DNA of 64,000 nt, taken from positions 101,007 to 165,006 of the IMG/VR virus record IMGVR_UViG_3300021431_000079; one strand, 5' to 3'. Under the pieces are notes generated by a model that was given only the letters and a program-made list of their open reading frames with translations, searched no databases and had not been told where the DNA came from. This DNA is from a virus. Taxonomy: Duplodnaviria > Caudoviricetes. Below, piece by piece: positions 14,528 through 39,817 of this stretch. Within the stretch, counting starts at the first letter, position 1, and each line of letters starts with the position of its first letter. A program made the position numbers and the translations under genes.

Positions 14528-14662
14528 ATGGCTTGCCTTTGGTATTTAGGATTAGAAGCAACAGAAGAGTGCATAAAAACGTGTACTATAACAGAGAAAA
14601 ATAGGGATATTTGTGTGCGCCCAGAAACTTTAGACGCAGATGACGATTTTGAGTTAATTTAA
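14528..14662 (+). CDS. Cassette micro-ORF (44 aa)
   Basis: AGGAGG RBS; MACLWYLGLE... Confidence 0.5.
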   Translation: MACLWYLGLEATEECIKTCTITEKNRDICVRPETLDADDDFELI

Positions 14663-14680
14663 AGGAGTATAGATGAAAAC

Positions 14681-14815
14681 ATGATGCAACTAATAGCACA
14701 TGGCATAGCAAGTGGCAATCTTGTTGCATATATGATACTTTACATAATTCTTTTACCGCCAATAATGCTTATTTGTTTTGCTATTATTGACTGGATAAAG
14801 AACAAAAATAAATAA
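14681..14815 (+). CDS. Cassette micro-ORF, TM peptide (44 aa)
   Basis: MMQLIAHGIASGNLVAYMILYIILL... Confidence 0.5.
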   Translation: MMQLIAHGIASGNLVAYMILYIILLPPIMLICFAIIDWIKNKNK

Positions 14816-14831
14816 CTTAAAGGCAGGTATT

Positions 14832-14984
14832 ATGACAGTAAAGGAGTTGATTGAGAAATTACAGCAAGAAAATCCCGATACGCTTGTTTATACAACGGAC
14901 GATACAAATTATGATGATATTGCTTTAGTGACCGAAATTAGTAGAAATATACTTTTTGGAAAGGAGATCATATTTCTTCATTAG
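14832..14984 (+). CDS. Cassette micro-ORF (MTVKELIEKL type, 50 aa)
   Basis: Common small phage protein start motif. Confidence 0.6.
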   Translation: MTVKELIEKLQQENPDTLVYTTDDTNYDDIALVTEISRNILFGKEIIFLH

Positions 14985-15016
14985 ACGTATATGGAAGGAG
15001 ATTGTTTATTTTTATT

Positions 15017-15274
15017 ATGAATTTATTATTTTACAATAATAATGGCGAATGGCATAAACTGTGTGAAACATCTGAGTTTGAAGTAACCAATATAGAGACA
15101 GAAGAGATTACAGAAGGAAAACAGCAAACTCTAATGTTCGATGGCCACTATTCGTGTGATGGAGTGTTCACCCTTACAAAACAATCAAGAATCAAATTGT
15201 TGCAAAAAGTATTTTGTATGTCCAACAACTGGTTGCGTATGCATGGGTATCCGATGAAAAAGAAAAGGGAGTAA
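15017..15274 (+). CDS. Hypothetical protein
   Basis: ORF ending NNWLRMHGYPM. Confidence 0.55.
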   Translation: MNLLFYNNNGEWHKLCETSEFEVTNIETEEITEGKQQTLMFDGHYSCDGVFTLTKQSRIKLLQKVFCMSNNWLRMHGYPMKKKRE

Positions 15275-15276
15275 CT

Positions 15277-15693
15277 ATGATCAACGGATTAAGATTAAAA
15301 AACGCCTTATTGTGTCAAACAGGAGAGGGTAAAAAATATTGCAAGCATTGTTCGTATAATAACGATGATAAATGTGATATTAAAAAACTCTCGTCAGATG
15401 TGTTGGAGTATATCAAAACGGGTGAAGACACTTTTAATATGCTACAAGATGAATTATTAAAACACATGAAAGCGTCGGAGGGAGACCTTCAAATAGAACG
15501 AATAAATAAACATAATTCTTTCTTTGTACCAAAAGAGGAAGAGCCAACTTATAAGTGGATAATAGATGGACATCATATTATTTGTGAGCACTGTGGAATG
15601 TGTATGTGTAGGACAGATAGAGAAGGTGACACAATCCCGCATAACTTTTGTCCTGAGTGTGGTGTGAGGATGGAAGAAATAATAGAAGGGTAA
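15277..15693 (+). CDS. Zn-ribbon hypothetical protein
   Basis: CEHCG...NFCPECG. Confidence 0.6.
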   Translation: MINGLRLKNALLCQTGEGKKYCKHCSYNNDDKCDIKKLSSDVLEYIKTGEDTFNMLQDELLKHMKASEGDLQIERINKHNSFFVPKEEEPTYKWIIDGHHIICEHCGMCMCRTDREGDTIPHNFCPECGVRMEEIIEG

Positions 15694-16054: not shown

Positions 16055-16066
16055 TGAGGTGTTGTG

Positions 16067-16243
16067 GTGAAGAGATATAGATGTATAGAGTGTAAACATT
16101 GTAATGAAGATGAAAAGAAATGTTATCCTCAGTCGAAAGATTGTCAGGCTGAATATGACTTAACAGAAGATGATATTTATGAGTATTCAACCGAACGCTG
16201 TGATTTCTTTGAGGCGAAAGTTGAGAAGATGGAGGATGCATGA
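16067..16243 (+). CDS. Cys-rich 58-aa protein, paralog of 26277-26450
   Basis: GAGGTG RBS; MKRYRCIECKHCNEDEKKCYPQSKDC... Confidence 0.7.
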   Translation: MKRYRCIECKHCNEDEKKCYPQSKDCQAEYDLTEDDIYEYSTERCDFFEAKVEKMEDA

Positions 16244-22496: not shown

Positions 22497-24584
22497 TTAA
22501 TAACCTCTCACTGTATTAAATTCAATAAATCCAGATAATCCATTTAGTGGTATTGCAGAATTACTTGCATTACTTAAAATAATATTCACACCCAACTCAG
22601 TTACACCGCTTGAATCAACAGTGATAGCGTTAGAAGATTGAGTTGTAGTACCATTAACTGTTTTATAACTTGTTACGCCAGATACATATAATCCAGAGTT
22701 TGTTGGGCTATTTAAAGATACCGATATAGAATGTGTTCTTCCTGTGAGATCACTAATATCTGAACTACTTAAAACATAGGTATAGATATAGCTTCCATTT
22801 GCCGCAATACTATCCGTAATTGTTGTATCAGATGGAATAGTAACAACTGTTTTTCTTGGAATAACATATTTTGTATCTGTAACAGATACAGCCCACTGTT
22901 CTTCATCGTTGGCATCAGTATAACAGCTTATTGTTAATACACTTGCAACAAAATTATATGCGCTATTATATTTTACGGATATGTATCTGGTCGCACTAAT
23001 TCCACCAGAAACATTATTATATGGTAAATATACAGTTGATTCTCCTGCATACATCGGACTCTCAAGTACAACATATTGTGGATAATATTTAAACTTACCA
23101 ATTTTGTTTTTAATATTTTCAAGATCACCTATTGTATAAGTTGTAGTTCCACCATAACTTACTTTACTTATCTTAATAGCTAATACGTTGGACGATGTAG
23201 ATGATGATGAAAGTAATACGCCTAACTGTATGGCACTCATGGTTACTTGATCTGATGTACCATAACCAAGTGTAAGACCACCAGATAAGTATTCATTACC
23301 GCCCCAATCTAACATTCTCGCATTAGAGCGACTTGTATTTGCTGTACCATTTCCAACCATTTCAACATAAGTACCACGAGCACTCGCTGATGATACACTA
23401 CTATTTAAGTCGTTATTATATTCGCCAAAAACACGAGCGGATCTTCCAGACGCAATTGTTCCTTGTCCCTCGGCATGAGACATATTACCAGATGCATTTG
23501 TATTATAACCTTCAGCGTGAGAATTTAAACCAGACGCTGTATTATAGTTTCCTTCAGCATGAGAATTCGCGCCAGACGCAGTAACATTAGACCCTTCAGC
23601 ATGAGAAAAAACACCAGACGCTGTATTATATAATATATTGTTTGTTATTAGTCCATAGTCACCAGTTCCTTTTGCAATTCTATCTGAAAAATCATCTATA
23701 CCAAGCATTGTCTTAATAGCAGACTTCGCATCATTAGTATATGTTCCTATAGTATTACTTGATTGTGACTGGGTGGTGTCTCCTGCAGCTTTAGCAAGAC
23801 CATAAAAAGCAGACTCATGTTGATGTGATGGGACAATTGATTTATTGCCCTCTGTTCCAGTTTTAATCTCACCCGATGAAGCAACACTTTGTGATACCAC
23901 ACCATTACTAACGGATAAACCAGAGCCAACTTTCAGAATTCCAAAATTATTTTGTGTTGCATAATCTGTATTTTTTACATAGTTACTCAGATCAATAGAA
24001 TCTTCCACATCAGAAACAATCTCAGATTTATCTGTTGCAGTCCAATAATCAACACCTTTTACTGGTGTATAACCGTTCTGTCCGTTACTTCCTGCATCAC
24101 CCTTATCACCCTTAGCCCCAGTATCTCCCTTGTCTCCTTTATCGCCCTTATCTCCTTTATCACCCTTCACGCCTTGAATGCCCTGAATACCTTGTGCTCC
24201 CGTATCACCCTTATCACCTTTGTCGCCTTTTGCACCTTGAGCACCCTGAGCGCCATCTTGTCCGTTTTCACCATCTTTACCATCATTTATTGTTGCAATT
24301 GCTACGCTGTCAACATAAACAGTTGTTACACCATTGCTTTTACTTGCTGTAATAACTGGTGTATAACCATCAGCACCTTTAAGAGGTTGGGTATCATAAC
24401 TTGAACCATCGGCAAGAGTTATTGTTAATGTGCCATCTTGGTTCTGCGAGATATTTGTAATCCCCATACCCGGAGAACCCTCTTTACCATCTTTACCTCT
24501 TTCTCCGGGTTCTCCCTTTTCTCCTCGTGCTATAATTAATTTAGTAACAATGTTATTGTCAAAATCATAATTTATATTATTCAT
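22497..24584 (-). CDS. Tail fibre/adhesin with collagen-like and ASG-SHAEG repeats
   Basis: Gly-X-Y runs (GDKGDK); tandem ASGxxSHAEG beta-roll repeats. Confidence 0.8.
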   Translation of the reverse strand: MNNINYDFDNNIVTKLIIARGEKGEPGERGKDGKEGSPGMGITNISQNQDGTLTITLADGSSYDTQPLKGADGYTPVITASKSNGVTTVYVDSVAIATINDGKDGENGQDGAQGAQGAKGDKGDKGDTGAQGIQGIQGVKGDKGDKGDKGDKGDTGAKGDKGDAGSNGQNGYTPVKGVDYWTATDKSEIVSDVEDSIDLSNYVKNTDYATQNNFGILKVGSGLSVSNGVVSQSVASSGEIKTGTEGNKSIVPSHQHESAFYGLAKAAGDTTQSQSSNTIGTYTNDAKSAIKTMLGIDDFSDRIAKGTGDYGLITNNILYNTASGVFSHAEGSNVTASGANSHAEGNYNTASGLNSHAEGYNTNASGNMSHAEGQGTIASGRSARVFGEYNNDLNSSVSSASARGTYVEMVGNGTANTSRSNARMLDWGGNEYLSGGLTLGYGTSDQVTMSAIQLGVLLSSSSTSSNVLAIKISKVSYGGTTTYTIGDLENIKNKIGKFKYYPQYVVLESPMYAGESTVYLPYNNVSGGISATRYISVKYNSAYNFVASVLTISCYTDANDEEQWAVSVTDTKYVIPRKTVVTIPSDTTITDSIAANGSYIYTYVLSSSDISDLTGRTHSISVSLNSPTNSGLYVSGVTSYKTVNGTTTQSSNAITVDSSGVTELGVNIILSNASNSAIPLNGLSGFIEFNTVRGY

Positions 24585-24650
24585 AATTATATTCTCCAAT
24601 CATTATCTTGCACATAAAGAATATAATATATTATAACATTAACATATTTA

Positions 24651-25640
24651 TTATGAGCAATATCTATAATAAGCGTTTTTAACGTTATCCTTTTCGATGT
24701 AAACATATTTCATTGTGGTGTCAATTTTGTCGTGACCCAAAATATAAGCCACATCCTGAATCGACATACCACGCTTAATTAAATTCGTTGCAAGTGTTCT
24801 TCTAAATCTATGCGGATGAACATTCACAACACCAACTTTTTCAGATAACTTTGTCAACATAAATCTAACTCCATGCTGAGTTAGTCTTTCTGATCTCTTA
24901 CCAATTCCAGAGAAGAGAGCTTCGCTATCATCCGTTCTACTTTCAAAATACTGCTTGAGATACATAGCCGTGATATCATCTATGTAAACAGTACGCTCCT
25001 TATTCCCTTTACCAAGTACACGCACTTCAAGATTCTTGAAATCAACATCGCTTTTATTTAATCTTGTCACTTCACCGATTCTACATCCAGTAGAAATAAG
25101 AAAACAGACAAGCGCCTTATCTCTGATATTAATACAACCTTCTTTTAATTTCTCTATTTCAACACTGTCAAAAGGTAGTCTTTCTAACTTAGCATACTTA
25201 ATCCTACTTAGATTAATGCATGGATCAGTAGGGATAAGATTTTCTCTAAATAACCATCCGAAAAACGAGCACATGACACTTCTATATCCATTCAACGTTC
25301 TATCAGATATTCCACGACTTTTTAATCCTGCTAAATAGTTTCTAATGTGATATACACTTATATCTCTGGTTGGAACATTGATCTTTTCATACATCTTCTC
25401 AAGCACATAACGATAATGCCCCAATGTCTTTGAAGAACAACCTTCAATCTGCTTAGAGGAGATAAATGCATCCAATAAGTCTGCGCTATCATCATTTTTA
25501 ATTTCATCAATATTAACAGAACAGACAGAGAGATTATTCGCAACAACTTCCATCACCATAAACAGATCATCATATGACAACTTCGATATAAGATCGTTTT
25601 TAATATTTTTAATTAAAACCTGCTTATCAGCAATTGACAT
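24651..25640 (-). CDS. Tyrosine recombinase (XerC/D-like, with N-terminal SAM-like domain)
   Basis: TGCRIGE (R), GKGNKER (K), HRFRR (HxxR), LGH...TTMKY (H, Y); catalytic set intact. Confidence 0.95.
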   Translation of the reverse strand: MSIADKQVLIKNIKNDLISKLSYDDLFMVMEVVANNLSVCSVNIDEIKNDDSADLLDAFISSKQIEGCSSKTLGHYRYVLEKMYEKINVPTRDISVYHIRNYLAGLKSRGISDRTLNGYRSVMCSFFGWLFRENLIPTDPCINLSRIKYAKLERLPFDSVEIEKLKEGCINIRDKALVCFLISTGCRIGEVTRLNKSDVDFKNLEVRVLGKGNKERTVYIDDITAMYLKQYFESRTDDSEALFSGIGKRSERLTQHGVRFMLTKLSEKVGVVNVHPHRFRRTLATNLIKRGMSIQDVAYILGHDKIDTTMKYVYIEKDNVKNAYYRYCS

Positions 25641-25686
25641 AGCATATACCTCACAATAACACACAAGCAACTATAATGTTATAGCA

Positions 25687-25715
25687 ATTATAACATGAGA
25701 CAATATAAATGTCAA
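25687..25715 (-). promoter_or_regulatory. Consensus SigA promoter of the tyrosine recombinase
   Basis: Minus strand TTGACA-17nt-TATAAT with TG extension. Confidence 0.8.
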
Positions 25716-25761
25716 TTTAAATATAATGTAAGATATAAATAATAGCTAATAAAACAGTCAA

Positions 25762-25798
25762 AAATAGCCCCGCTCTATAATATAGAACAGGGCTATTT
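25762..25798. terminator. Terminator between the cassette array and the recombinase
   Basis: AAATAGCCC...GGGCTATTT hairpin. Confidence 0.7.
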
Positions 25799-25889
25799 AT
25801 TATTATATCGTATTCAGTTTTTATTCAATTTTTATTCGGTTTTTTATTTTAAGTACATTGTGTTGTGATGCGAAAAAGGCCGTTCATAT

Positions 25890-25908
25890 TACTTACCAAA
25901 AGCGTCCT
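25890..25908 (-). repeat. 19-bp direct repeat copy 1 / putative recombination site
   Basis: TACTTACCAAAAGCGTCCT, identical to 26819-26837. Confidence 0.9.
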
Positions 25909-25922
25909 ACTAATGTTAGGTA

Positions 25923-26141
25923 TTATACACTATTAGTATCTACTGTCCTCTCCCGATGGAGATGCTCTTTGAACATTCGACAGTCACTTTGCAGGCAAGC
26001 TTTCTCGAACGGAGAGTCACAAGATGCAGAACCGTCAGAATTGTAATAAATGTGCTTACAATTGTCGCACGTTTCTATTCTGTGTTCTTTCCCGTGTTTC
26101 CGCTTACGTCTTTCCAACAGCCATCTTGTCACGATACTCAT
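25923..26141 (-). CDS. Cassette Cys-rich small protein (72 aa)
   Basis: Start lies within site TAAAAGGAGCGCTAATG; CDNCKH...C...C...C. Confidence 0.6.
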   Translation of the reverse strand: MSIVTRWLLERRKRKHGKEHRIETCDNCKHIYYNSDGSASCDSPFEKACLQSDCRMFKEHLHRERTVDTNSV

Positions 26142-26276
26142 TAGCGCTCCTTTTACAATTTGCGGCATAGCAGAATCGAACTGTCTATTATACGGTGTCA
26201 CGCACTCGCTCTCTACCCTTGAGATAATGCCGCAGATTGTTTATGGTGTTTTAACATAAAGCCATAATAAACAGAT

Positions 26277-26450
26277 TTATACACTCATGTTATTTACTTT
26301 CGGTTTATAAAAATCACACCTTTCAGTAGAATAGTCATAGATATCATTATCTGTAAGCGCATATTCACTGAGACAATCCCTCGATTGAGGATAGCACTTC
26401 TTTTCATCTACATTACAATGTTTACATTCTATACACCTATATTTCTGCAT
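26277..26450 (-). CDS. Cassette Cys-rich 57-aa protein, paralog of 16067-16243
   Basis: GAGG RBS; MQKYRCIECKHCNVDEKKCYPQSRDC... Confidence 0.7.
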   Translation of the reverse strand: MQKYRCIECKHCNVDEKKCYPQSRDCLSEYALTDNDIYDYSTERCDFYKPKVNNMSV

Positions 26451-26587
26451 AAATAATCCTCATTTGCGTTCTATTATATGTAGGTATATTACACCATTGA
26501 TATATACATTCCTCTCCTGATACCGACTGTCCTACATTGACAACAGAGTGCCTACTTTGGTACACTAATGTCGAGGAGGTGATACGG

Positions 26588-26773
26588 ATGGGTATCAATG
26601 GAGGCCGTAACATCCGGGGAGTTGAAGAGGAGGGTGGATATACCAAATTCAACATCACTCTCCCTCCGTCCCTGATCGAGCGTCTGGATAAGTACATGAG
26701 GGAAGAAGAACGCAACCGCTCATGGACAATCCAAAAGGCACTCGATGCTTACCTAAGAGAGAAGGGCTATTAA
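26588..26773 (+). CDS. Ribbon-helix-helix (CopG-like) regulator
   Basis: KFNITLPPSLIERLDKY...RSWTIQKAL; GAGGAGG RBS; candidate promoter TTGACA..TACACT upstream (about 26538-26567). Confidence 0.85.
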   Translation: MGINGGRNIRGVEEEGGYTKFNITLPPSLIERLDKYMREEERNRSWTIQKALDAYLREKGY

Positions 26774-26818
26774 GCCCCTCTCTTTTTGTCTCCCCTGATA
26801 ACCACCAGTAGTTATTGA

Positions 26819-26846
26819 TACTTACCAAAAGCGTCCTTTAAGTTAG
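26819..26846 (-). repeat. 19-bp direct repeat copy 2 / putative recombination site abutting the fibre stop codon
   Basis: Minus strand TAA-CTTAAAGGACGCTTTTGGTAAGTA. Confidence 0.9.
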
Positions 26847-28717
26847 TTGCTCGGCAGTAATGATTTTATCTTACCGCCAATAAGGTTACCAATCCGTTCC
26901 CGTCCTTTTTCGTTCGGATGTGTTCCATCATCAGCCGGATAGAAATAAAGCCTTGTAAACGGGTTAAAACTTGTTTCATGATAAAGGTCAAGAAACGGAA
27001 CGTTCATATCAGTACAAGCCTGCTTATATGCTTCCGCATATTGCAGAAGTGTACCGCTACCCCAATCTTTCGTATCACTATATGATTCAGGCGTTGTCGT
27101 TCCATCTTGGAAGAACGTTCTGAAAATCGGGCAGGTCACAAGGATTTGAACGCCCGGATACTTGGACAAAATTTGCTTTATCGAATACCGAAGCGCACCG
27201 CAAACAGTGGAAGTATCAAATTTATTATTAGGATTGTCGAGTGTGCTTGATGGTTCTCTATAATCGTTCGTTCCATAGGCAATTATTATTGCATCCACTT
27301 TTGAAAAGTCACAAGCATTTAGCCAAGCAACAGTATTCCTGTAATATCCCGGCATTCCACTCCAACCCGTGTTGATTGCAGAGACAAGGCTTGTGAAATC
27401 ATCAGCATATATATCGTCTGCAAGCCTGTACATAGAGCAGTTATCCCACCCGGTTGCGTGTACGCTCATTCTGCACCCGCCAAATCCGAAGTTAAAAACC
27501 GTTGCACCACAAGCTTTGCTAATAAATGCAGGAGTTGAGGTTACATCTCGTGTGTTGCCCATTATGGAGTCTCCAAATACTGCAATTCGTTTTCCCTGCA
27601 ATGCAGTATTATCGGTCACAATTTGGCTCTTGATTTCGTTCCCGTCCGCAAAAAGATCGGATGTACTGTAATCAGTGACAAACCATTTCAGTGGAGAAGC
27701 TGAATCATTAACACCAACACGGATGAAATATGCATTATTCGGCGCAATAAACTTTATAAAGCCGCCATCCCAATCGCATCTTGTGTGGTCGTACCCGCTT
27801 GCGTACACAAAAGTGTCTGCCAACCCAATAGTGCCTGCATCATAAAAGCACACTGTTATTGCATTATATTCAAAAGATGGTGCATTGTTTTGATTGAACA
27901 GCCCCAACTTATATGTATTTCCGGGAGTGATGGCAATAAAATCAGAAGCTCTATATCCGTCATTGTCAAAGACTCGGCCTGTAGTATTTTGCAGATATTT
28001 ATTATCTTCTATGTTTCCAACAATATTATAACTGCCATGCAGATTGACAACTTCATTTGATACGTCTTCAATTTCGCGTGACAACGAAAATGCGTTTCCC
28101 CAATATGGTTCATATTCCGTTTTTGTTTCTCCGATTTCCACTTGAAGATTTTTATGAATATCTCTTGACCAACGAATATACCGCACTTCGTAATCCGAAC
28201 TAATGCCGATCGTCCTTTCAGATACGTTAGAGGGGAATGTATAATAATTTAACTGTGTCTTGTTAGCATCATAGATATAAAGGTACATACCAGAATATCC
28301 ACAATTTGAACCGTCAGCCGTTGACAATGTAAGACGCTCGCCGCCATTAAGAAAAACAGGATAATAAACGTTGGGATCGGTTCCACATAAATTTTTCCCT
28401 TGCCCAATCCAATTTAAAGCGCTCTTTAAGTCAGTAATTTCGTCACCAGTTTTCTTTGCATCTGCCGCCGCACCTGCAACGGTAAGTGAATTATCTACTG
28501 CATATCCTTCCTGAATATGCTGACCCAACCAAGTGCTTGCAGTCGTGGCTACTGGGTCAGTTACAACACTTGGGTTCGTGTCTATATATGTGTCTATGGC
28601 ATCTACTACTTGTGTATCTGTTGGGTAACCAGTGTCACCCTTGTCTCCCTTTTTTCCTCTCGCAACTACCAATTTTGCTTTTATACTATCTTCAAAATCA
28701 AAATCAATATCTGCCAT
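26843..28717 (-). CDS. Tail fibre/receptor-binding protein with C-terminal SGNH/GDSL esterase
   Basis: N-terminal anchor with short collagen-like stretch; FGDSI, GTND and DGTHP SGNH blocks. Confidence 0.85.
   Translation of the reverse strand: MADIDFDFEDSIKAKLVVARGKKGDKGDTGYPTDTQVVDAIDTYIDTNPSVVTDPVATTASTWLGQHIQEGYAVDNSLTVAGAAADAKKTGDEITDLKSALNWIGQGKNLCGTDPNVYYPVFLNGGERLTLSTADGSNCGYSGMYLYIYDANKTQLNYYTFPSNVSERTIGISSDYEVRYIRWSRDIHKNLQVEIGETKTEYEPYWGNAFSLSREIEDVSNEVVNLHGSYNIVGNIEDNKYLQNTTGRVFDNDGYRASDFIAITPGNTYKLGLFNQNNAPSFEYNAITVCFYDAGTIGLADTFVYASGYDHTRCDWDGGFIKFIAPNNAYFIRVGVNDSASPLKWFVTDYSTSDLFADGNEIKSQIVTDNTALQGKRIAVFGDSIMGNTRDVTSTPAFISKACGATVFNFGFGGCRMSVHATGWDNCSMYRLADDIYADDFTSLVSAINTGWSGMPGYYRNTVAWLNACDFSKVDAIIIAYGTNDYREPSSTLDNPNNKFDTSTVCGALRYSIKQILSKYPGVQILVTCPIFRTFFQDGTTTPESYSDTKDWGSGTLLQYAEAYKQACTDMNVPFLDLYHETSFNPFTRLYFYPADDGTHPNEKGRERIGNLIGGKIKSLLPSN
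28413..28435 (-). repeat. Palindromic putative recombination site inside the fibre gene (encodes TDLKSAL)
   Basis: ACTGACTTAAAGAGCGCTTTAAA; 17/20 identical to the site at the gene's stop. Confidence 0.7.
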
Positions 28718-30066: not shown

Positions 30067-33000
30067 TTACTTTGACATGAGAGCAATTTTATCTTCAAGT
30101 TCTGCTATTTTACTCATAGCATTTTCATATCTCTCATCACTACGTTTCAATTCTTTCTGTAACACAGCAACAATATCAGGAATAATTTCTGTCAGGTTGA
30201 CTGCACCATAATAAACTTCCTTATCATCAACAGTAGTTCCAATTTGCCTTGAAACAACCCATTTATTATCTTTCTTAATTGGATCGACTTCATCATAAAT
30301 AAATCCATGGTGATGATCACTGTTTTCATCGCTGATGTATTCAAATTTAGAGGGAATCAAACCTTTGATAAAATCCTCAGAATCATTTGCATTTAATTTC
30401 ACTATGTTCTTCTTTAATCTACGATCAGAAGGATTATTATAGTTGCTTGCAATCATTGTAGTGGCAGAGAATGTGTGAGCAGTTACGGTACAGTTCTCTA
30501 CAGTCGCACCAGAGCTTGTGTGTCTACCTTGGAAAGCAACTGTGTTAGTTCCGCTATTTATAATTCTTGCAGAATAATCATATCCACCGCTCTGTCCGGG
30601 TTGCTTCATTTCTCTATGGAAATCTATATATGGAGAGTTACCATCATTATCTGCTAACAACTCAAGGCCATAGCTTACGAACAACGCATTAGTTACCCAA
30701 GTATCATCATTTGTACTTGAACTGCTTACAGATTGAATAGAACCAAATTTATATTCTCCTGTGCTCTTAATATAAACAGAAGATTTAGCAAATGCAATAC
30801 CATTAGAACCAAGATACACACCATTATGATTCGGGTCTGTAAAGCTCGTCATACCATTAAACAATGCTCCATTTGTTCCAGTACCTATATTCCATGCTCC
30901 AAGTCTCCCACCATTTGCGGCATAGATATATCCATCATAGTTAATATAAAATGTATTCGAATAAGTTCCATATGTAGAACCATTATATGTTCTTTGTCGG
31001 CATTGAAGTGCCACGGAATCAGCCTTTGGATTCGAAGGACAATACAACCTAACATTATATTGTGTAGAAGATGTTCCAGACGTAACCGTACTTTGATTAT
31101 ATATCTCGGTATCATTTATCACCCATCTACCAAATCTTCCTGTTGTAGCATTAACCGTACCACTGATCTCAGCGCTCTTAGCAACTAAATGACCATCATT
31201 TCTAACAACAAATGTTGGGGTATAGTTTGAGAAAGTGCTTCCATCATAAGAACACTTTTGAACAGAGATAGCCCATCCACCGTCACCCGCATTTTCAGTT
31301 CCCCATATTTTCTTTAGGTATGCGGAATCAGTTGGTGTTCCTACTGTATAGTTAGTAAACTTATGAATATCATTTGTACTGATTACCCAACCTGCAATGT
31401 TACCAGATGAAGCAGTAATATTACCTGCAATCTTCGCATTCTTACAATACATATAACCATCTTGTCTAACATAGAAATTAGATGCAGTTTCAGAAGCAAT
31501 CGCGCCTCCTGCGGCAGTATTTGTCCCTGCATAAAATACAGCACTACCATTAGTTGCTGTTGCTGTATTTTGCATACCAACCCTATAACCACCACTACCA
31601 GTTAAATCTTTCTCTATTCTTGTTCCATTAATAGCCCATCCACCAATATTAGCAGATATAGACTCAAGATTATTTACTTTGATTTTATCAGCAGTTATAG
31701 ATCCAGTGTAAATTTGAGCACCATCAATCTTTGTCTTGTCATTTGAATTGCACCAAAGAGAAGAGTAGCTTAACGTAGACAAAGCAGTAACATCTGTGAA
31801 ACTCGTAATGCCATCCGTGTATACAATCATATCACACATGAAATAATAACAGTTCCGTTTAGGATCTGGCATTGACTTACACCACTTATTTGTATCACTA
31901 TCAGATAGTGTAGAATAAATAGTCGTAGTAGATGTTGGTTTGCTTGGTATGGTATTCGTTGTAGACCTATAATAAATAGGTGTGGTCTGCTTGATTGTTT
32001 TCATTACTCCTCTATTTGAAACATAGGTATGAGTAGTCTCGCCAGTTTCAAACATCGGAAAGAAGGTAATACCATCTGACGGTGTTGCATATCCAGAGAA
32101 AATCACAATATAAAGATGCACATACTTGAATCCGGCAGAAACGGTAACTCCACTTCCGCTGTCTGTATATATTGTACCGCTTGTTGCTGTCGGTGTTGTT
32201 CCATCTGCCGTACACCTTGCACACAGAGAATATGAGGTATTTGTTCCTCCCGAAGGACAGCCTGACAGTCTGTACTTTTTATTTGGATCAATAAACAAAA
32301 CAGATTGTTCATTTGTCAATTCGGGTAATGTATATCCCGTAATGGTAAAATATGTCTCTCTCGTTGCAGTTCCAGTTACCTTCACAGAACCATCAGGATT
32401 AACTGTAAATGTTAATCCATTCACTGTCCAAGGTGAACCACTAACATACTCTCTATTATAAACAGACGGAACAAGGTTTATCGCAGGTATTGTAGCAGAT
32501 AAACTTGTCACAGCGGCATTCGCATCATCAGCAGTCTGCTGTGCATTATCTGCGGCAAGTTGAGCGGCAATAGCGGCTTTTTGTGCAGATGTCTCTGTCA
32601 ATACCCAATTTGTTCCATCATAAATAAATGTAACAGTATCTTTATTCTTCCAGTAATAATCAGAAGTAATTGCCGCACCATTAGCATAAATAGGTTTAGC
32701 ACCAGTTCCACTTACATTCAATGTTGGGTTTGCTACTGTATTTTCATTATTAAAATACACAGTAACAGTCGCACCAGTATACAGCAGGAAGTCATTTATT
32801 GTTGTTGTCTTTGCCGCTGTATTTGCAGATGTCGTACACAAACCATAGTTTGCTTTGGTAGCTTTAAGATCGTTCTTAACCTCATTGTTAAAGCTTGAAT
32901 ATGTAACAGCACCATTAAGGTTAATCCTTTCTGCATCAACCTGATAAGTGGTAGCAGTTTGGTTAACCCTTGATATGATTTCATTACCATTAAAATCTTC

Positions 33001-36000
33001 CTCAGATACTTTAGACTCTATGCTATCAGCATTTATTTTTATAGATGCTTCTGCCTTTTTAATTCTTGTGGCAGAATTATCTACTGGACTTTTCCATGCA
33101 TGTATAATAATACCGCTTTCCAACATAGGATAGAAAGTAATATTGTTAACAGTTGCACCACTACCAACACATATTCTGATTAACATTTCTGTTTTTTCAG
33201 TAAGCACGAGAGAAACACCAGTACCATAATCATACCAATATACTATAGGAGAGGTGCTTACTGTACTTAATCGCATATAATAACTGGCATTCGAACCACC
33301 CGGATAACAACCACTTAAGCTATATGCTCCCGGTTGTAACTCAACCCTATTTATATCTATATACGATCCACCAATATCACTTGTACCATTAGCGGTAACA
33401 GAACCATCAGTATGAATGGTATATGTAATTCCAGATTTTTGTATCACATAATCAGATGTACCCTCATTATTACCATGAGCAAGATAAGGATAGGTGAGCA
33501 TATTATCAACAGACGATAACTCTTTATCTGCCAAGCACCACTCAGAAGCATAGCTACCACGTTCAATCTTGAATCCGCACATCTCATTGGATGCTACAGC
33601 ATTGTATTTAACGAGGAATGCAAAGGCTATCCCACCATTCTTCATCGTGTTTTCCGGGGCAACAAATGTAAAGCTGTATCTTTGCCATCCTACTGACGCA
33701 ACATCTGATTCATATATTATAGTATAATCAGTAGCATTCGGATCTGTTTTATATCCAAAAGCAATAGTGTTTCCACTACCAATAATACCATAACATGATA
33801 CAGTATATGTTTCTCCCGCAGTTAAAATAGTACCACAATCATCATCATAGAAAGCAATACCATAATAATTGTTATCAGGAGAAGAGGAGCAAAGGCATCT
33901 TACTAAATACCTGATGTTGGTTTGTGGCATTTCAAATCCATAATTAGAATCTTCTCGTATAGAAACTGTATTACGTAACGAACCAGTTGCCACAATTTTC
34001 TTATCAGCGACAGCAGATATCCTAATAGTACCCGGAGTATTCGTATCAAGCAATAACTGCTCCCCACCTCTACGATATGAATCTTCTGGGGCGGGAGTCC
34101 ATGCGGTAGCCTTATTACCAAATTCAACCTTAAGATTCCTGATAGTCACAATAAGACCATCTGGTAATTGTCTTCCTTCGACCCTGATCTTTGTAAAGTT
34201 GGCGCTCTTATCAGCACTTGTAATCTTAAAGGATTCACTCACATGACCAGAACCAGTTGAAATATCAGCAACACCAGAAACATTTTCAGGTAGTCTCGGT
34301 GGAACATTAAATCCCACATAAATAGAACCAGACGGAGTAACGTTATCACTTGTGCTCCAATCATAAGAGAATGTTACCCAACCATCAATTACATTATCAG
34401 AATAACTTCTCCAAGTATCAGATAAATAATATGAGTCGTTTGAAACAACACTCTCACTCGTACCAATAATAGATGCAGGATAAACAGTATCCAACACAAT
34501 ATTTCTTCCACCAATGGAGAAATCATCAAACGCCTGTTGAACCTTAGCTTCTATAGACTGTTCAAGAATAGTCACTTGAGCTTGAGATTGTGTAACGCCA
34601 GTAATGCTTGATCCCTTCTTAGGAGGAGTAAACAGCTCACCACCAAATATTACACCATCTTCACCATACATATATGTTGCAATAACAATATCTGTTGACT
34701 CAACAAAAGCCCATAAGAATGGATTACCATGAGAACCATCATTAGCTGTATATTTTACAGCCTTATAAGATTTTGTGTTTTCATCCCACCAAGCATCATA
34801 ATGTCCACTGTCGCTTGTTCTATACACATGATAGATCGGGGTGTTATATGGAATAACATCAGTATACATACCATTCGCAGGATAAATCCATACGCCTTTT
34901 GCAATATTAACTTTCTGTTTATTCCACCATACCCAACCATCAACATCCGCTCTATTTCCGCTATCATTGAATCCACAGAAATAGCATCTTCCATCATTTG
35001 GATATAAAAACGATCCGTAATTTACCAACCAAGAAAGTCCAGTGTCACCAAGAGAATCATCAAGATAATCAAGATGATTCGTGTATTTACCATTAACTAT
35101 ATTTTGAATAGAAGAGTTCGTAATAAGAGTCTGGACAGAACTATCATATTGATAGAAATGCTCTTGAAGAGTATCATTAATAACAGTAGTCCATTCATAA
35201 TGTCCATCAGAATACTTTAGCTGATGGCACATATAAAGGTGGCAATACACATCAGTCCACAACGGCCTTCCCTGTGTCCATTTGTTTGCCACATTACCAG
35301 TCTCAGTAACAGCCACAACTGGCTTACTCGGAGGAGTGGTCATATCAGAAGATATATAAAGTGGGATATCTTCAGTAATACTATTCTCCATATAGATTAC
35401 TGACCACGAGAATATCTTATTTATGGTAACACCACCAACAGTAACAGGAATGGTTAAGAATCCAGTCTGCTGTGTGAGGTTTTCTGTTGTAGATACAGTG
35501 ATAGAGGTTCTTGTTGTACCATTGTAATTCACAGTTGCGGTTAACGCTCCTTCAATTGTTCCAGTGATAGTTCCAACAGTAGTGTTAACACGAGTAGAAC
35601 CCTGATAACCAATAACATCAAATGTCACACTGTCTACTTCGGCACTTGTATATCCACCTGCAAACATATGGGAATCATTTGTAAGGATTGCAACCCTTGA
35701 ATCCGTTCCGTCAGCAACAACAGGTATTGTCTGGCTGTCAAGTAATACAGTTGTTCCACCTGCTTCATACAAGGAGCACTTAATATATGTAAGTGATTCT
35801 TGTATATTAAAAGTAACAGTAGAATCATCCTGAGTAAACGTGTAAATTCTGTCACTATCACTTTCGGCATTATATGTTTCAATTGTAAATCTACCAACAT
35901 AATCTGTTGGAGCATTGTCACCAACTTTTTGATATGCATGGAACACAAGTCTATTTGGACTATTTGTTCCATCATTTCCTCTTACAACTGCATAATAATC

Positions 36001-39000
36001 TGATTCCAAATACCTTCTAACAGCTGCCTGACCCTGATTACCATAAGCGCCAATAATACACGGATTTGTTGAAGATGGATTGCCAGTTGTATAAGTGATC
36101 TCCTCATAATTCCAGAGATATTTATTTGTTGGTGTTATATTTTGAATTGTTTCAGTCCATCCAGAAGTGTCCTTTGTTACACCAGAGGACTGACTTGTGG
36201 CAAGGTAGTAATTCGTAATGCTGACAATTCCCCTACCATCTGTTCCACTTTCACCATAAACGCCAATAACACGCTTACCAGTGGGAGCAATACTTCCGTT
36301 AGAATAATTTACGATCTCATAGTTCCAAAGATATTTGTCTGTTGGTGTCATTACTGGAATAGTTGTAGTGAACTCACTGTCAGAAGGAGCAGAAGAGGAC
36401 GAATTAGATATAGCGTACTTTTCAACAATACTGCTAATCCCAACACCACTTGTTCCAGAAGTTCCGTATGTACCAACTATAATAGGCGTGGTTGATGTTT
36501 GCGTAGCAGAATCCCCATACCCATATGTATATAAATGGTACATCCATAAATACTTATTTGTCTCACTGATAACAGCTTGTGAAGCATCTGTTGTCCAACC
36601 CGGAGTAGATGTTGTTACACCAGAATCCAAATTGGTTGCAAGATAATAAAGAACATCACTTGTGATAGCACGACCAGAAAGATCATTAACCTTGCTTAAT
36701 GCTTCAGCGGCATCCGCAATAGCCTTAGCCGCACTACTATCCTCAATCAGATACCATTGATATTGTCCATTGATCAAGGAGAAACGATATGCGAACCCAT
36801 TGTATTCATCACTTGATTGCACATAATACATATCACCCAAGTGTCTGTTTTTCGTTTCATCAGTTCTCCAATTGACAGCAGGTTCATTAGTTAAGGTAGG
36901 AACAACAGAACCATTCCATGTTTCAATAGTACCATCAATCTGGCTTTGAATATCTGCAATAGTCTCATCAAATGTTTTTCCTGTTGTCATGGTAATACTG
37001 CTACCATTAAAAACAAGGTTTCCATTTTCATCTATATAAACTTGTTTCTCAATATTAAATCCACCCTGACCATCACTTGTCTTTTTCTGGATGGTAAATG
37101 TATTCGAATTTACATCATCATCACCATTTGATGTAATAGTGATTCCGTTCTTATCAATGGTCACATCACCATTCTCGCTGAAGATACTCATATCTTCACC
37201 AAGGATCATGTTGCCTATCAATTGTTTTGCAATGATACCATAACCTTCTTCGATCTGACCAGTCTTTGGATTATAATAATCAAATCTACCAAGTGCGGTT
37301 TCTGTAGTTTCCCAATTATCTGTAGTAAAGGCAAGAGTTGTATTAATCCACTTGGATTGAAAATCAGAATAGTCTTGCTCTATATCATCCCACTGTTTCA
37401 TTGACATACCAGTATCATCAAGAACCATTGTTTGATTAGTGGCATTAAGGATTCTCATTGTAGTTAAGTCGAGTCCCTTTTTAATCCAATCATTCACCTG
37501 TTCTTTTGTCTGTACTGAAGTAGCGGCTTGATACTTAATTGACTCATATGATTTTGCCATTGACTTTGCTGATTCAAAAATATCAGAAAGGCTCGTATCG
37601 CCATGTCCAACAACATCAGAAAAGTCTACCTGAATAGTATCAATACTATCAAAATCAATAGAATAGGAGAGAAGTCTTACACGATATATCTCACCATCTA
37701 CCTTTATTCTAATCCAATTTCCAACTGAGAAATAATTCACAAGAGGTTTGAACTCATCAATAGTCAATAAGTTATTCAGCGTAGTAGATATAGAATGATT
37801 TTCTGTTGCCGCTTTATGAATCTCATAATTCGCAATCTGAACAAACTCAGCGGCTTTCTTAAATAACTCAGCATTGTCAAGCCCATCAGAAATATAATTA
37901 TTATTCTGATAATCATCTTCCATTTTATACGAATACAGTTCCGTTGCAAGATCCTGACCAAGATAGTTAACAATATCCAATGTATCATTGATGATGTGCT
38001 TACGTTCCATAAGACTATCATATAAATCTTCAATAGCGGCGATCTCTTCATCACGAGTTTTTACCTCTGCTTCAATTGCCCTTAGCTTTTGAACATATGG
38101 AAGATAAATATAAGTATAGGCATTTACTCCACCTTCAACCAGTGCGGCACTTGTTGGATTGGAGATTCCCATTTCAACCATTACACCAATAGCACCTTCA
38201 CAAGCAGAGAGAATAGATGCAAGTCCTGCTCTGGAATATTTCTTTAATCTATCCTTGAAATCTTCAATTCCAAGATCAAACAGTTCTGTTATAGAATAGC
38301 TATTCTTATCTAATTGGGCTACAGCCTTTTCAATCTTTTGTCTTGCATATATCTCATATGTGTCGTTGATTGGAATGTTAATTGTATCTGTTGTTGCCGT
38401 ATCCTCTTTATCAGATACAGCGGTAACCTCAAAGCTACCTGTCCAAATATGATTCACAGAATCATAAACAGAGGATACGATCTTGGCTTTATATCTTGTA
38501 TCAAGAATAATCTTGGTTGCATTAACAACAGCATTATCAACAGTAGTAGAAGATGCAGACCTTAGATTCGCCACAGCAACAGACGGAAGATTAATAGGTG
38601 TTATCCTATTTGCCTGTTCTTGTGCCGTAGTGTCCATATCTAATGTCGGTAATAAACCAGACTCAAGATAGATTTGAAAATCCATAACATCATAGACAGC
38701 GTTCATCAACTGAGCATATCCAATAATATCATCTATCTTAACAAGATCATCTTTGTATGGGAGATATTTATCTACTAAATGATTATATAATGTTAACTTT
38801 GCTGTTGGAATTGGAACATCATAAGTGTTCTCATAGTATTCATAATCAGCATCATAAGCAGATAGGCCATTCTTCAACTCAGGACTCATATCTTCCTTCA
38901 TCTCATCTGTGAAGTACCAGATATATTGAGAGCCATTTGGGTTAGAGGAGATAATAGCCGCATCCATCAAACCATCACCAGACAATAATCTGAAACAGTT

Positions 39001-39813
39001 TTTAACAGCATCAGTATTTGTAGTTAAATTGATTTGCGTTGCAAGTCCGTCTGTATCTACAAAAATAGTAGTATCCTCTCCATAAGGATACTCAATATTC
39101 GAGCTTCCACAGTTCGGGCAAACACCACTAAAATCATCTCGTTTCCCACAGTTTTTACAATAGCTTCTTAAGTCGTAAGCTGAGATAGCTCTTTCAATAC
39201 TTCCATCAGGAAGAGTGCCAGAGTCATAAACAAAGATACATTGCACCTCTTGTGCAATAGTATTAAAAGTATCATAAACATTCTGACCATCCAATGAGAA
39301 CGTTCTTTGAATGTTCCTTAAGGATTCATCAACGTGTTTAATTGTAAAACCCATAGTAAAAGAAAGCACCCTATGTAAAAGGGACGCTTCTGGTTTTTGT
39401 GGATTAAAGAATACAGTAGGTTCTGTATATTCTTTTCGTAATATATCAGACTCAGTATTGATCTCAAGATTGTGAACGTTCATGTTAGATAGCTCAAACT
39501 CTGAGTTCGGTGTGAGGCTGATATTCTTTATCAATTCATTGCTTTCATCTACATCATATGTAAGTGCAAACCACTTATCATATTCTGGTATCCAAACCTT
39601 CCTGAAATTCTTGATCTCTTTCCAGTTGGCACTTGTAGCATCATCAACATAGTGCGTAGCGAAATTGATTTCAGTAGGAGAGTTCATATTGTCAGCAATA
39701 TGAAAACCAGTAATGTTATCAATCACACCAATCTTTTTACCACTACGAGTTGCTAAGACCATAGTCGGTTTTGTTGGTGTGTTTTTTCCATTGAATTTTA
39801 TCTTTATTGCCAT
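30067..39813 (-). CDS. Tal/central tail spike with repeats, carbohydrate-binding-like modules and a C-terminal intramolecular chaperone
   Basis: Follows Dit; prophage-tail-like N-terminus; three NKYLW repeats; KVEFGNKATAWTPAPED; SDRRLKKNI (peptidase S74-like). Confidence 0.85.
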   Translation of the reverse strand: MAIKIKFNGKNTPTKPTMVLATRSGKKIGVIDNITGFHIADNMNSPTEINFATHYVDDATSANWKEIKNFRKVWIPEYDKWFALTYDVDESNELIKNISLTPNSEFELSNMNVHNLEINTESDILRKEYTEPTVFFNPQKPEASLLHRVLSFTMGFTIKHVDESLRNIQRTFSLDGQNVYDTFNTIAQEVQCIFVYDSGTLPDGSIERAISAYDLRSYCKNCGKRDDFSGVCPNCGSSNIEYPYGEDTTIFVDTDGLATQINLTTNTDAVKNCFRLLSGDGLMDAAIISSNPNGSQYIWYFTDEMKEDMSPELKNGLSAYDADYEYYENTYDVPIPTAKLTLYNHLVDKYLPYKDDLVKIDDIIGYAQLMNAVYDVMDFQIYLESGLLPTLDMDTTAQEQANRITPINLPSVAVANLRSASSTTVDNAVVNATKIILDTRYKAKIVSSVYDSVNHIWTGSFEVTAVSDKEDTATTDTINIPINDTYEIYARQKIEKAVAQLDKNSYSITELFDLGIEDFKDRLKKYSRAGLASILSACEGAIGVMVEMGISNPTSAALVEGGVNAYTYIYLPYVQKLRAIEAEVKTRDEEIAAIEDLYDSLMERKHIINDTLDIVNYLGQDLATELYSYKMEDDYQNNNYISDGLDNAELFKKAAEFVQIANYEIHKAATENHSISTTLNNLLTIDEFKPLVNYFSVGNWIRIKVDGEIYRVRLLSYSIDFDSIDTIQVDFSDVVGHGDTSLSDIFESAKSMAKSYESIKYQAATSVQTKEQVNDWIKKGLDLTTMRILNATNQTMVLDDTGMSMKQWDDIEQDYSDFQSKWINTTLAFTTDNWETTETALGRFDYYNPKTGQIEEGYGIIAKQLIGNMILGEDMSIFSENGDVTIDKNGITITSNGDDDVNSNTFTIQKKTSDGQGGFNIEKQVYIDENGNLVFNGSSITMTTGKTFDETIADIQSQIDGTIETWNGSVVPTLTNEPAVNWRTDETKNRHLGDMYYVQSSDEYNGFAYRFSLINGQYQWYLIEDSSAAKAIADAAEALSKVNDLSGRAITSDVLYYLATNLDSGVTTSTPGWTTDASQAVISETNKYLWMYHLYTYGYGDSATQTSTTPIIVGTYGTSGTSGVGISSIVEKYAISNSSSSAPSDSEFTTTIPVMTPTDKYLWNYEIVNYSNGSIAPTGKRVIGVYGESGTDGRGIVSITNYYLATSQSSGVTKDTSGWTETIQNITPTNKYLWNYEEITYTTGNPSSTNPCIIGAYGNQGQAAVRRYLESDYYAVVRGNDGTNSPNRLVFHAYQKVGDNAPTDYVGRFTIETYNAESDSDRIYTFTQDDSTVTFNIQESLTYIKCSLYEAGGTTVLLDSQTIPVVADGTDSRVAILTNDSHMFAGGYTSAEVDSVTFDVIGYQGSTRVNTTVGTITGTIEGALTATVNYNGTTRTSITVSTTENLTQQTGFLTIPVTVGGVTINKIFSWSVIYMENSITEDIPLYISSDMTTPPSKPVVAVTETGNVANKWTQGRPLWTDVYCHLYMCHQLKYSDGHYEWTTVINDTLQEHFYQYDSSVQTLITNSSIQNIVNGKYTNHLDYLDDSLGDTGLSWLVNYGSFLYPNDGRCYFCGFNDSGNRADVDGWVWWNKQKVNIAKGVWIYPANGMYTDVIPYNTPIYHVYRTSDSGHYDAWWDENTKSYKAVKYTANDGSHGNPFLWAFVESTDIVIATYMYGEDGVIFGGELFTPPKKGSSITGVTQSQAQVTILEQSIEAKVQQAFDDFSIGGRNIVLDTVYPASIIGTSESVVSNDSYYLSDTWRSYSDNVIDGWVTFSYDWSTSDNVTPSGSIYVGFNVPPRLPENVSGVADISTGSGHVSESFKITSADKSANFTKIRVEGRQLPDGLIVTIRNLKVEFGNKATAWTPAPEDSYRRGGEQLLLDTNTPGTIRISAVADKKIVATGSLRNTVSIREDSNYGFEMPQTNIRYLVRCLCSSSPDNNYYGIAFYDDDCGTILTAGETYTVSCYGIIGSGNTIAFGYKTDPNATDYTIIYESDVASVGWQRYSFTFVAPENTMKNGGIAFAFLVKYNAVASNEMCGFKIERGSYASEWCLADKELSSVDNMLTYPYLAHGNNEGTSDYVIQKSGITYTIHTDGSVTANGTSDIGGSYIDINRVELQPGAYSLSGCYPGGSNASYYMRLSTVSTSPIVYWYDYGTGVSLVLTEKTEMLIRICVGSGATVNNITFYPMLESGIIIHAWKSPVDNSATRIKKAEASIKINADSIESKVSEEDFNGNEIISRVNQTATTYQVDAERINLNGAVTYSSFNNEVKNDLKATKANYGLCTTSANTAAKTTTINDFLLYTGATVTVYFNNENTVANPTLNVSGTGAKPIYANGAAITSDYYWKNKDTVTFIYDGTNWVLTETSAQKAAIAAQLAADNAQQTADDANAAVTSLSATIPAINLVPSVYNREYVSGSPWTVNGLTFTVNPDGSVKVTGTATRETYFTITGYTLPELTNEQSVLFIDPNKKYRLSGCPSGGTNTSYSLCARCTADGTTPTATSGTIYTDSGSGVTVSAGFKYVHLYIVIFSGYATPSDGITFFPMFETGETTHTYVSNRGVMKTIKQTTPIYYRSTTNTIPSKPTSTTTIYSTLSDSDTNKWCKSMPDPKRNCYYFMCDMIVYTDGITSFTDVTALSTLSYSSLWCNSNDKTKIDGAQIYTGSITADKIKVNNLESISANIGGWAINGTRIEKDLTGSGGYRVGMQNTATATNGSAVFYAGTNTAAGGAIASETASNFYVRQDGYMYCKNAKIAGNITASSGNIAGWVISTNDIHKFTNYTVGTPTDSAYLKKIWGTENAGDGGWAISVQKCSYDGSTFSNYTPTFVVRNDGHLVAKSAEISGTVNATTGRFGRWVINDTEIYNQSTVTSGTSSTQYNVRLYCPSNPKADSVALQCRQRTYNGSTYGTYSNTFYINYDGYIYAANGGRLGAWNIGTGTNGALFNGMTSFTDPNHNGVYLGSNGIAFAKSSVYIKSTGEYKFGSIQSVSSSSTNDDTWVTNALFVSYGLELLADNDGNSPYIDFHREMKQPGQSGGYDYSARIINSGTNTVAFQGRHTSSGATVENCTVTAHTFSATTMIASNYNNPSDRRLKKNIVKLNANDSEDFIKGLIPSKFEYISDENSDHHHGFIYDEVDPIKKDNKWVVSRQIGTTVDDKEVYYGAVNLTEIIPDIVAVLQKELKRSDERYENAMSKIAELEDKIALMSK

Positions 39814-39817
39814 TTTA

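Follow-up and report, generated by a model that had tools for sequence, protein, structure and literature searches.

The subject of this analysis is a tail-fibre locus in the final 64 kb (64,000 nt, positions 101,007–165,006; hereafter the window) of IMG/VR virus record IMGVR_UViG_3300021431_000079, a Caudoviricetes genome of 165,006 bp and 36% G+C that is rated complete. Judging by sample names such as SHIW14 and AUXO01, the phage probably comes from the sheep rumen. A 624-aa fibre gene on the - strand is followed by an array of small genes and by a gene for a 329-aa tyrosine recombinase. Short related sites, all in the same orientation, are located in the hinge of the fibre, at its stop codon and in front of the recombinase gene; the cassettes between them differ among phages, the breakpoints falling on the sites, and site and recombinase remain paired in relatives. 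The recombinase probably exchanges cassettes at these sites, in this clade by replacement from outside. The tips of tail fibres decide which bacteria can be attacked, and here a single slot, defined to the nucleotide, is filled by six unrelated tips; swaps of whole cassettes thus seem to be the means by which host recognition changes.

The locus can be read as a Rin-type system of site-specific recombination dedicated to the tail fibre, in which an Xer-like tyrosine recombinase, encoded beside the receptor-binding fibre gene, would act by replacement and not by inversion. The cassettes would be an enzymatic fibre tip, a 365-bp regulatory unit with a ribbon–helix–helix (RHH) gene and a block of two genes for cysteine-rich (Cys-rich) proteins. 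The features of the locus are listed in Table 1.

Table 1. Positions of the features of the fibre locus and of the serine recombinase gene in the window; slashes in the site sequences separate arms and centre.
Feature	Position	Strand	Description
624-aa fibre	26843–28717	-	collagen-like N-terminus, SGNH/GDSL C-terminus
Constant N-terminal part of the fibre, ~99 aa	28422–28717	-	collagen-like GKKGDKGDTG, AAADAKKTGDEITDLKS hinge motif
Hinge site S1	28409–28434	-	CTGACTTAAA / GAGCGC / TTTAAATTGG; in the fibre frame, TDLKSALNW; fixed left end of the array
Tip cassette 1, ~1.58 kb	26840–28420	-	central domain, SGNH/GDSL esterase domain and stop codon
Fibre-stop site SA	26821–26846	-	CTAACTTAAA / GGACGC / TTTTGGTAAG; overlaps the fibre stop codon, contains a copy of the 19-nt repeat
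RHH unit, 365 bp	26466–26831		terminator hairpin, RHH gene, promoter, outward-facing left arm
Bidirectional terminator hairpin	26764–26777		in the RHH unit
RHH/CopG gene, 61 aa	26588–26773	+	promoter at 26537–26566
Degenerate site SC	26466–26517	-	left-arm extension GGAGAGGA...TATACCTACATATAATAGAACGC, then AAATGAGG; boundary of RHH unit and Cys-gene block
Cys-rich gene, 57 aa	26277–26450	-	one block with the 72-aa gene; absent from L034, L018
Cys-rich gene, 72 aa	25923–26141	-	one block with the 57-aa gene; absent from L034, L018
Recombinase-proximal site SB with left-arm extension	25892–25954	-	GGGAGAGGACAG...GTGTATAATACCTAACATTAGTAGGACGC / TTTTGGTAAGTAA; core 25892–25919
Promoter-like AGGACA-16-TATAAT	25949–25922	-	within the left-arm extension of SB
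Hairpin with T run, terminator-like	25762–25798	-	between array and recombinase promoter
Recombinase promoter	25715–25687	-	TTGACA-17-TATAAT, 12/12 sigma-70-type consensus, upstream TG
Tyrosine recombinase, 329 aa	24651–25640	-	Xer-type, without arm-binding domain; 1.2 kb behind the fibre stop codon
Large serine recombinase, 611 aa	17098–18933	+	best NCBIfam matches CcrB and CcrC, below cut-off; adjoins lysis genes

Sites, cassettes and recombinase

A perfect 19-nt direct repeat, AGGACGCTTTTGGTAAGTA (- strand), occurs at 26819–26837 and 25890–25908 and, with its imperfect left part, extends over about 30 nt; shuffled sequences give an expectation of 0.01. The hinge of the fibre contains a further copy, CTGACTTAAAGAGCGCTTT (28416–28434), which matches the fibre-stop copy at 16 of 19 positions (again 0.01 expected from shuffles) and is read in frame as TDLKSAL. 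The three sites built around these copies, S1, SA and SB, rank top in a weight-matrix scan of the whole 165,006-bp genome, a check suggested by an earlier interpretation made without database searches (the sequence-only reading), and all three lie on one strand. The putative recombination site would span about 26 bp, with imperfect inverted arms of 10 bp around a GGACGC or GAGCGC centre, all copies having the same direction. By inspection, the arms match at 7–8 of 10 positions, and the spacing of the SB type is 2 nt longer.

Five direct sites had been proposed in the sequence-only reading. Three of them stand; the one at about 26461–26476 (SC) is present in degenerate form, and its left arm of about 50 nt (26466–26517) is homologous to the left arm at 25902–25954, with natural junctions of L034, L030 and L119 located there. 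The fifth, at 26139–26156 (GTAAAAGGAGCGCTAATG, - strand), corresponds to the start codon of the 72-aa gene with its ribosome-binding site, and the variants compared revealed no natural breakpoint there. A single attI-like site inside the fibre gene is not supported; instead, each fixed end of the array is formed by a half-site, the left half in the hinge and the right half, that of SB, beside the recombinase, about 250 nt upstream of its start. Not every interval contains a single gene; in the variants found, the two Cys-rich genes behave as a block that is present or absent as such, its breakpoints falling on the sites. The RHH cassette does exist as a unit, with its gene on the + strand, opposite to the array. 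Both the RHH gene and the 72-aa gene are provided with their own promoter-like sites.

Single-stranded DNA folding of six segments, one site being folded on both strands, gave z values of -0.65 to +0.9 for five of the six; the sole z of -2.1 is that of a coding hairpin outside the site. No attC-like hairpins were found in these segments, in agreement with the sequence-only reading, and sites of the attC hairpin type are ruled out.

The recombinase had been described as intact and provided with its own consensus promoter, and both statements hold. The protein matches Pfam Phage_integrase (1.2e-34) together with SAM-like N-domains and nothing else, the invariant residues of the family include the catalytic ones (R173, K211/K214, H277, R280, H303 and Y312) and the promoter agrees with the consensus at every position. 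Where a terminator had been placed, between array and recombinase, there is a terminator-like hairpin with a T run. The best NCBIfam models for the recombinase are XerA and XerC (219.6 bits for XerA with a cut-off of 220); among solved structures, the XerA/XerC-like 4A8E is closest (4e-29). The protein fails both integron-integrase models, with 56 bits for TIGR02249 (cut-off 265) and 36.6 for NF011946 (cut-off 435). The family is very large (6,753 matches, mostly of about 328 aa); among the phage variants described below, the recombinase is 96–100% conserved. The 611-aa serine recombinase, probably the lysogeny integrase, gives the phage two unrelated recombinases. With a separate serine integrase, the tyrosine recombinase would not be needed for integration and is left without an obvious housekeeping role.

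Two minor observations concern the sites. Besides the three sites, the matrix scan gave one candidate, a weak one, at 11443 on the + strand, where tandem site-like cores (TTAAAAGGACGCTTTAAAA and AAAGGACACTTGGG, 11443–11480) are located just past the stop codon of a 366-aa gene ending at 11431. They are inverted relative to the fibre locus and may represent a secondary site or chance; in the whole genome, the 12-mer AAAGGACGCTTT is found solely there and at the fibre stop codon. In L012 (L numbers denote the loci compared with the window), whose recombinase is 96% identical, the 8-nt block after GGACGC in the region corresponding to 25890–25919 reads AATAAGTC versus TTTTGGTA in the window, in DNA that is otherwise 95% identical; this difference in the recombinase-proximal site may mark a second exchange point.

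Natural variants and related phages

Variants of the locus were found by exact look-up of the window's proteins in public assemblies. Six phages with flanks 93–100% identical carry six unrelated fibre tips, each diverging just past ACTTAAAGAGC (base 28421). Recognisable enzymatic domains are present in three of the six: an esterase in the window (Pfam Lipase_GDSL_2, 1.2e-16), a phosphatase and a peptidase. L036, a genome of 164,319 bp, shows 100.000% identity over 7,297 bp up to 28421 and over 6,991 bp from 26839, and these flanks enclose a tip of 1,740 bp that is unrelated to that of the window and contains an M14 peptidase domain. A scan of JGI metagenomes with the hinge 20-mer returned a second copy of this variant, L117, and one chance match. 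In L018 and L020, identity extends through 28419 and is followed by a metallophosphatase tip (721-aa fibre); past the stop codon of this tip they rejoin at GGACGCTTTTGGTAAGTAATATG (25907), the recombinase-proximal copy, and the RHH gene and both Cys-rich genes are therefore absent. The constant N-terminal part of the fibre is identical in L018, L020, L036 and L117. The phages L119, L121 and L126, 93–95% identical, bear three further tips that begin at the same nucleotide; in one of these, a short tail precedes a separate gene.

Fifteen contigs encode exactly the same 61-aa RHH protein. The RHH unit is located behind seven unrelated fibre 3′ ends, with the similarity always starting at AAAGGACG; its identity is 94–96% behind six other unrelated fibre ends and 88% in L119. 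The unit ends in a conserved left arm, ...GTGTATAATACCTAACTTTAGTAGGA. In five of six further loci this arm is followed by CGC and then by a variable right arm, TTTTGGTAAGTAA, TTTAAGTTAGTAA or TTTAAATCAGTAA, and in L030 and L119 it stops at GTAGGA and is joined to unrelated DNA; the L119 junction removes the Cys-rich genes, the recombinase and half of the second fibre. L034 has the order fibre, RHH unit, recombinase, the Cys block being absent. The 3′ ends of unrelated cassettes keep a recognisable half-site with the consensus ACTTAAAGGA. Overall, the junctions bracket the exchange point at GGA^CGC. An identical gene order in relatives had been set beforehand as the finding that would speak against a cassette array. 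The contents between the sites differ instead, and near-identical phages vary in six tips, the RHH unit and the Cys block, with breakpoints at the motif, as the sequence-only reading had anticipated.

No alternative tips were found elsewhere in the 165-kb genome with blastn and tblastn; these searches and the whole-genome matrix scan rule out a dispersed shufflon with tips stored in other parts of the genome. Megablast of the locus against GenBank phages gave no match. Scans of IMG/VR yielded eight unrelated chance matches alone for the exact 17-mer of the repeat and no match for the hinge 20-mer or the start of the RHH unit, and relatives of the fibre protein did not turn up there in a pattern search. 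In L028 and in a Logan contig, the assembly breaks at 25907, a hint of variants co-existing in one sample that is not counted as evidence.

The pairing of site and recombinase extends to distant phages. Exact AAAGGACACTTT is located 106–382 nt upstream of recombinases 50–55% identical to that of the window (L037, L040, L041, L046 and L056 from IMG/VR), at or a few bases from the stop codon of the preceding open reading frame (ORF). The four of these with a complete upstream fibre gene (L037, L040, L041 and L056) have TTAAAGAGCG in the fibre hinge, and L042 contains one-mismatch versions of both sites, its end site being 428 nt upstream of the recombinase. The 11-mer TTAAAGAGCGC is represented by 9 copies in 1.5 Mb, compared with about 0.4 expected; 8 of the 9 are on the sense strand, 1.6–2.9 kb upstream. 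Hinge motifs [DENG]LKS are spelled TTAAAGAGC in 16 of 22 cases, against 0.9% expected jointly from codon usage. The usage of TTA for Leu is 7%, and TTAAAGAGC is outside the eight commonest spellings (2–6 each) of 77 other LKS tripeptides. This bias in spelling means that the hinge is constrained as DNA, beyond the protein. SGNH tips 46–68% identical to that of the window occur on unrelated N-termini, with the homology starting just past DLKSA[FL]; L127 retains both flanking sites. The same site bounds tips in unrelated phages.

Where the recombinases are about 40% identical (L104, L109, L111, L112 and L114), the loci are true shufflons: 766-bp segments are inverted between contigs 97–99% identical, exchanging the C-terminus of the fibre, and four sites GAAYTAAGTAGCAA, related to those of the window, are present in both orientations. 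The cultured phages TPELB_ph1 and phiCp-D, with recombinases 28–33% identical, keep the order of fibre, recombinase and lysis genes, and inspection of both revealed no convincing repeat. No 8-mer is common to the regions upstream of all 73 recombinase homologues, which makes the site clade-specific.

Some relatives show peculiarities of their own. In L013–L016, TAG is read as glutamine, the recombinase is 54% identical and an 862-aa GDSL fibre lies 44 bp upstream of it, the gap containing a site-like sequence that fits better on the other strand. In L105, two inverted copies of ttacttaaTTAAAGAGCAAg flank the recombinase gene at -45 and +1117, which suggests that the gene may be on an invertible segment. 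In L056 (3439–5736), the hinge is duplicated with identical flanks, giving an N-terminal ORF of 156 aa and then a fibre of 582 aa, both of which contain TTAAAGAGCGC.

Mechanism, alternative explanations and known systems

Crossover would take place at GGA^CGC (GAG^CGC in the hinge), and each junction would then combine the left half of one site with the right half of a different one. With no spare tips and with all sites direct, a tip can be expected to change by replacement. The new tip would have to come from another genome, for instance that of a co-infecting phage or a resident prophage, either by excision of a circle and its re-integration or by two intermolecular exchanges at the flanking sites. 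The predicted junction of a circular tip is ...ACTTAAAGGA joined to CGCTTTAAATTGG; an empty hinge would have ACTTAAAGAG joined to CGCTTTTGGTAAGTAATATG, reading ...TDLKSAFGK-stop. Comparison of sequences suggests catalysis by the recombinase, the exact point of cleavage and a possible role of the RHH protein as a regulator or accessory factor.

A number of observations weigh against exchange by the recombinase. Assembled sequences, the only material used, contain no circle junction, no empty site and no deletion between the 19-nt repeats. The 929-bp block between these perfect direct repeats persists, identical, in at least three independent records (the window, L036 and L117; L017/L026, a near-duplicate assembly of the window genome, was left out of this count), and an active enzyme acting on perfect direct repeats should often cause its loss. 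The centres of the hinge site and the downstream sites differ at two of six bases (GAGCGC and GGACGC), and classical tyrosine recombinases tolerate mismatches of central bases badly. Some arms fit the consensus poorly, namely the left one of the 721-aa metallophosphatase tip (GCGTAATGGA) and the right ones of three tips (CAGATAAAC, CAGTTTGAT and CAAATTAGT). L119 is without the recombinase; L127 has both flanking sites, yet its next gene encodes an endolysin and not a recombinase; and the recombinase-adjacent site of L013 fits better in the opposite orientation.

The first alternative is ordinary mosaicism, in which tips are swapped by homologous or microhomology recombination at conserved linkers (the hinge and the RHH unit) and the recombinase is unrelated, serving, for example, in multimer resolution or as a second integration system. 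Fibre genes are classic mosaics, conserved DNA bounding a variable tip can alone give sharp and recurrent boundaries, and the sites of L127 without an adjacent recombinase, as well as the lack of recombination intermediates in assembled sequences, fit this explanation. It is nevertheless rather unlikely. In distant phages, conservation is limited to an island of about 11 nt within divergent flanks; this island is too short for homologous exchange and is kept against codon bias in the hinge; the half-site is retained on unrelated 3′ ends of cassettes. The four junctions of the two isogenic variants imported no flanking single-nucleotide polymorphism over 14 kb, whereas other carriers of these units differ by 4–12%. 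The adjacency of site and recombinase persists down to 50% protein identity, and inversions at related sites occur in the relatives with about 40% identity.

It is less probable still that the locus is a decayed shufflon, whose ancestor had several inverted tips. Only the expressed tip and two direct sites would have been kept, the recombinase would now be idle or serve only as an off-switch that removes the tip or the 929-bp block, and the polymorphism would be old. Rin loci too have an in-gene site and a direct site just past the stop codon (PMC6109161), the relatives at 40% identity are true shufflons and the copy at 26466–26517 is visibly degenerate. However, the layout of two direct sites and a recombinase is standard throughout the clade at 50–55% identity, the recombinase is intact and conserved among the variants, with a perfect promoter, and three tip variants have flanks that are 100% identical, so that the exchanges must be very recent. 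That the repeats are regulatory elements unrelated to recombination (RHH operators, translation signals or parts of terminators) is highly improbable: promoter-like boxes are found in the left-arm extension (25949–25922), which is situated upstream of the promoter of the RHH gene, a proposed site has turned out to be only a ribosome-binding site and AAAGGA resembles a Shine–Dalgarno sequence, but regulation accounts neither for at least 12 different junctions with natural breakpoints on the motif nor for the single DNA spelling in the coding hinge, and it is not an exclusive role, as the arms may serve both functions.

Exchange of cassettes by the recombinase has its closest known counterpart, judged by the layout of the locus and its description, in the Rin shufflon of Bifidobacterium prophages (Mavrich et al. 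2018, PMC6109161), a system that the sequence-only reading overlooked. In Rin loci, an XerD-like tyrosine recombinase without an arm-binding domain is encoded beside a receptor-binding tail gene, lysogeny depends on a separate integrase and a constant N-terminal part is combined with an exchangeable C-terminal part, with one site within the gene and another, directly oriented, immediately behind its stop codon (PMC6109161). The fibre locus of the window resembles them in having an arm-binding-domain-free tyrosine recombinase beside a fibre gene, a neighbourhood that recurs in relatives, in the positions of the crossover sites (at the boundary of the constant and variable parts of the fibre, 28409–28434, and past the stop codon, 26821–26846) and in a separate, presumed lysogeny integrase of the phage. 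Rin shufflons have reportedly been described for Eggerthella lenta prophages as well. In contrast to Rin, the 165-kb genome stores no tip segments and has no strong inverted site, its three strong sites all being direct; variants arise by replacement or by presence and absence of cassettes, inversion being confined to the loci with recombinases about 40% identical; the cassettes include non-fibre genes (RHH and Cys-rich); and the site is about 26 bp around GGACGC, unlike the 11-bp rix of Rin, TTCCCTAACCC. With neither inverted sites nor stored tips, the locus is not a shufflon in the strict sense, and the distinction from inversion shufflons drawn earlier is confirmed.

The likeness to integrons proposed in the sequence-only reading stands as far as the variable cassette array with breakpoints at the sites is concerned. 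As in integrons, the recombinase gene is at one end of a one-directional array, whose fixed end adjoins it, cassette content varies between otherwise identical genomes and junctions are hybrids of half-sites. By its defining features, the locus is not an integron: it has no IntI-type integrase and, in place of folded attC hairpins, it has short sites of the duplex type. The recombinase gene is downstream of the array and co-directional with it, whereas an integron integrase is divergent and located beside attI and Pc. The first cassette is an in-frame protein domain, and some cassettes carry their own promoters, in contrast to promoterless integron cassettes.

The Gin, Cin and Min tail-fibre switches of Mu, P1 and p15B employ serine recombinases. 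These switches and the R64 Rci/pilV shufflon share with the fibre locus a constant N-terminus, alternative C-termini, a short site and a neighbouring recombinase (also summarised in PMC6109161); unlike it, they invert DNA between inverted sites, using a closed set of stored tips. Xer-dependent dif modules (Acinetobacter plasmids) and IMEX employ host XerC/XerD on short two-arm sites with a 6-bp centre. They are similar in the Xer-family enzyme, the short two-arm sites and the small gene modules found in many contexts, but their bounding sites are oppositely oriented, and no such module is known to be fused in frame with a structural gene.

The recombinase-driven switches described so far (Gin, Cin, Min and Rin) pick among a few self-stored tips, whereas the pool is apparently open here. 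Somewhat doubtful, though conceivable, is the wider proposal of an open integron-like phage platform. An Xer-type recombinase would capture in-frame tips and accessory genes from other genomes at one short duplex site, the outward promoter in the 3′ arm of each cassette would drive the next one, and host recognition and accessory content would be re-dealt among unrelated phages that share the site. Exchange by the recombinase, if true, would explain quick and precise fibre mosaicism in dense communities and would offer a natural plug-in point for the exchange of receptor-binding domains, as well as a new recombinase–site pair for cassette exchange. The locus also raises the question of how an enzyme without an arm-binding domain avoids the loss of DNA flanked by direct repeats; candidates for control elements are the conserved RHH unit and the long left arms.

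Neighbouring genes

On the - strand, the tail module has the order of a 3,253-aa tail protein, three small genes and the 624-aa fibre; downstream of the fibre follow the RHH gene (+ strand), the two small Cys-rich genes, the hairpin and the tyrosine recombinase, and 3′ of the latter come a second, collagen-rich fibre and the lysis genes. The module includes two giant ORFs on the - strand, of 3,253 aa (30067–39828) and 4,936 aa (41003–55813); the C-terminus of the former has a weak Peptidase_S74 match. The second fibre (22497–24599, - strand) is variable, with 695–700 aa here and 651 aa in L012; in L119 its C-terminal 329 aa alone are left, fused to the RHH left arm.

The 57-aa Cys-rich gene has a paralogue with 80% DNA identity at 16064–16243 (+ strand), among small early genes. 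The homology begins at the ribosome-binding site, a few bases past the ACGC of the degenerate site. Relatives of the 57-aa gene in other phages are located within arrays of small genes on the same strand. In the early small-gene region of the window (14529–15408, + strand), three stretches of 104, 178 and 144 bp are absent from L012; two of the breakpoints are at or just past start codons, one of them after AACTTAAAGGCAGG, and the 104-bp gap is inside a coding region. Judging by this alignment, small genes of the early region also appear to come and go.

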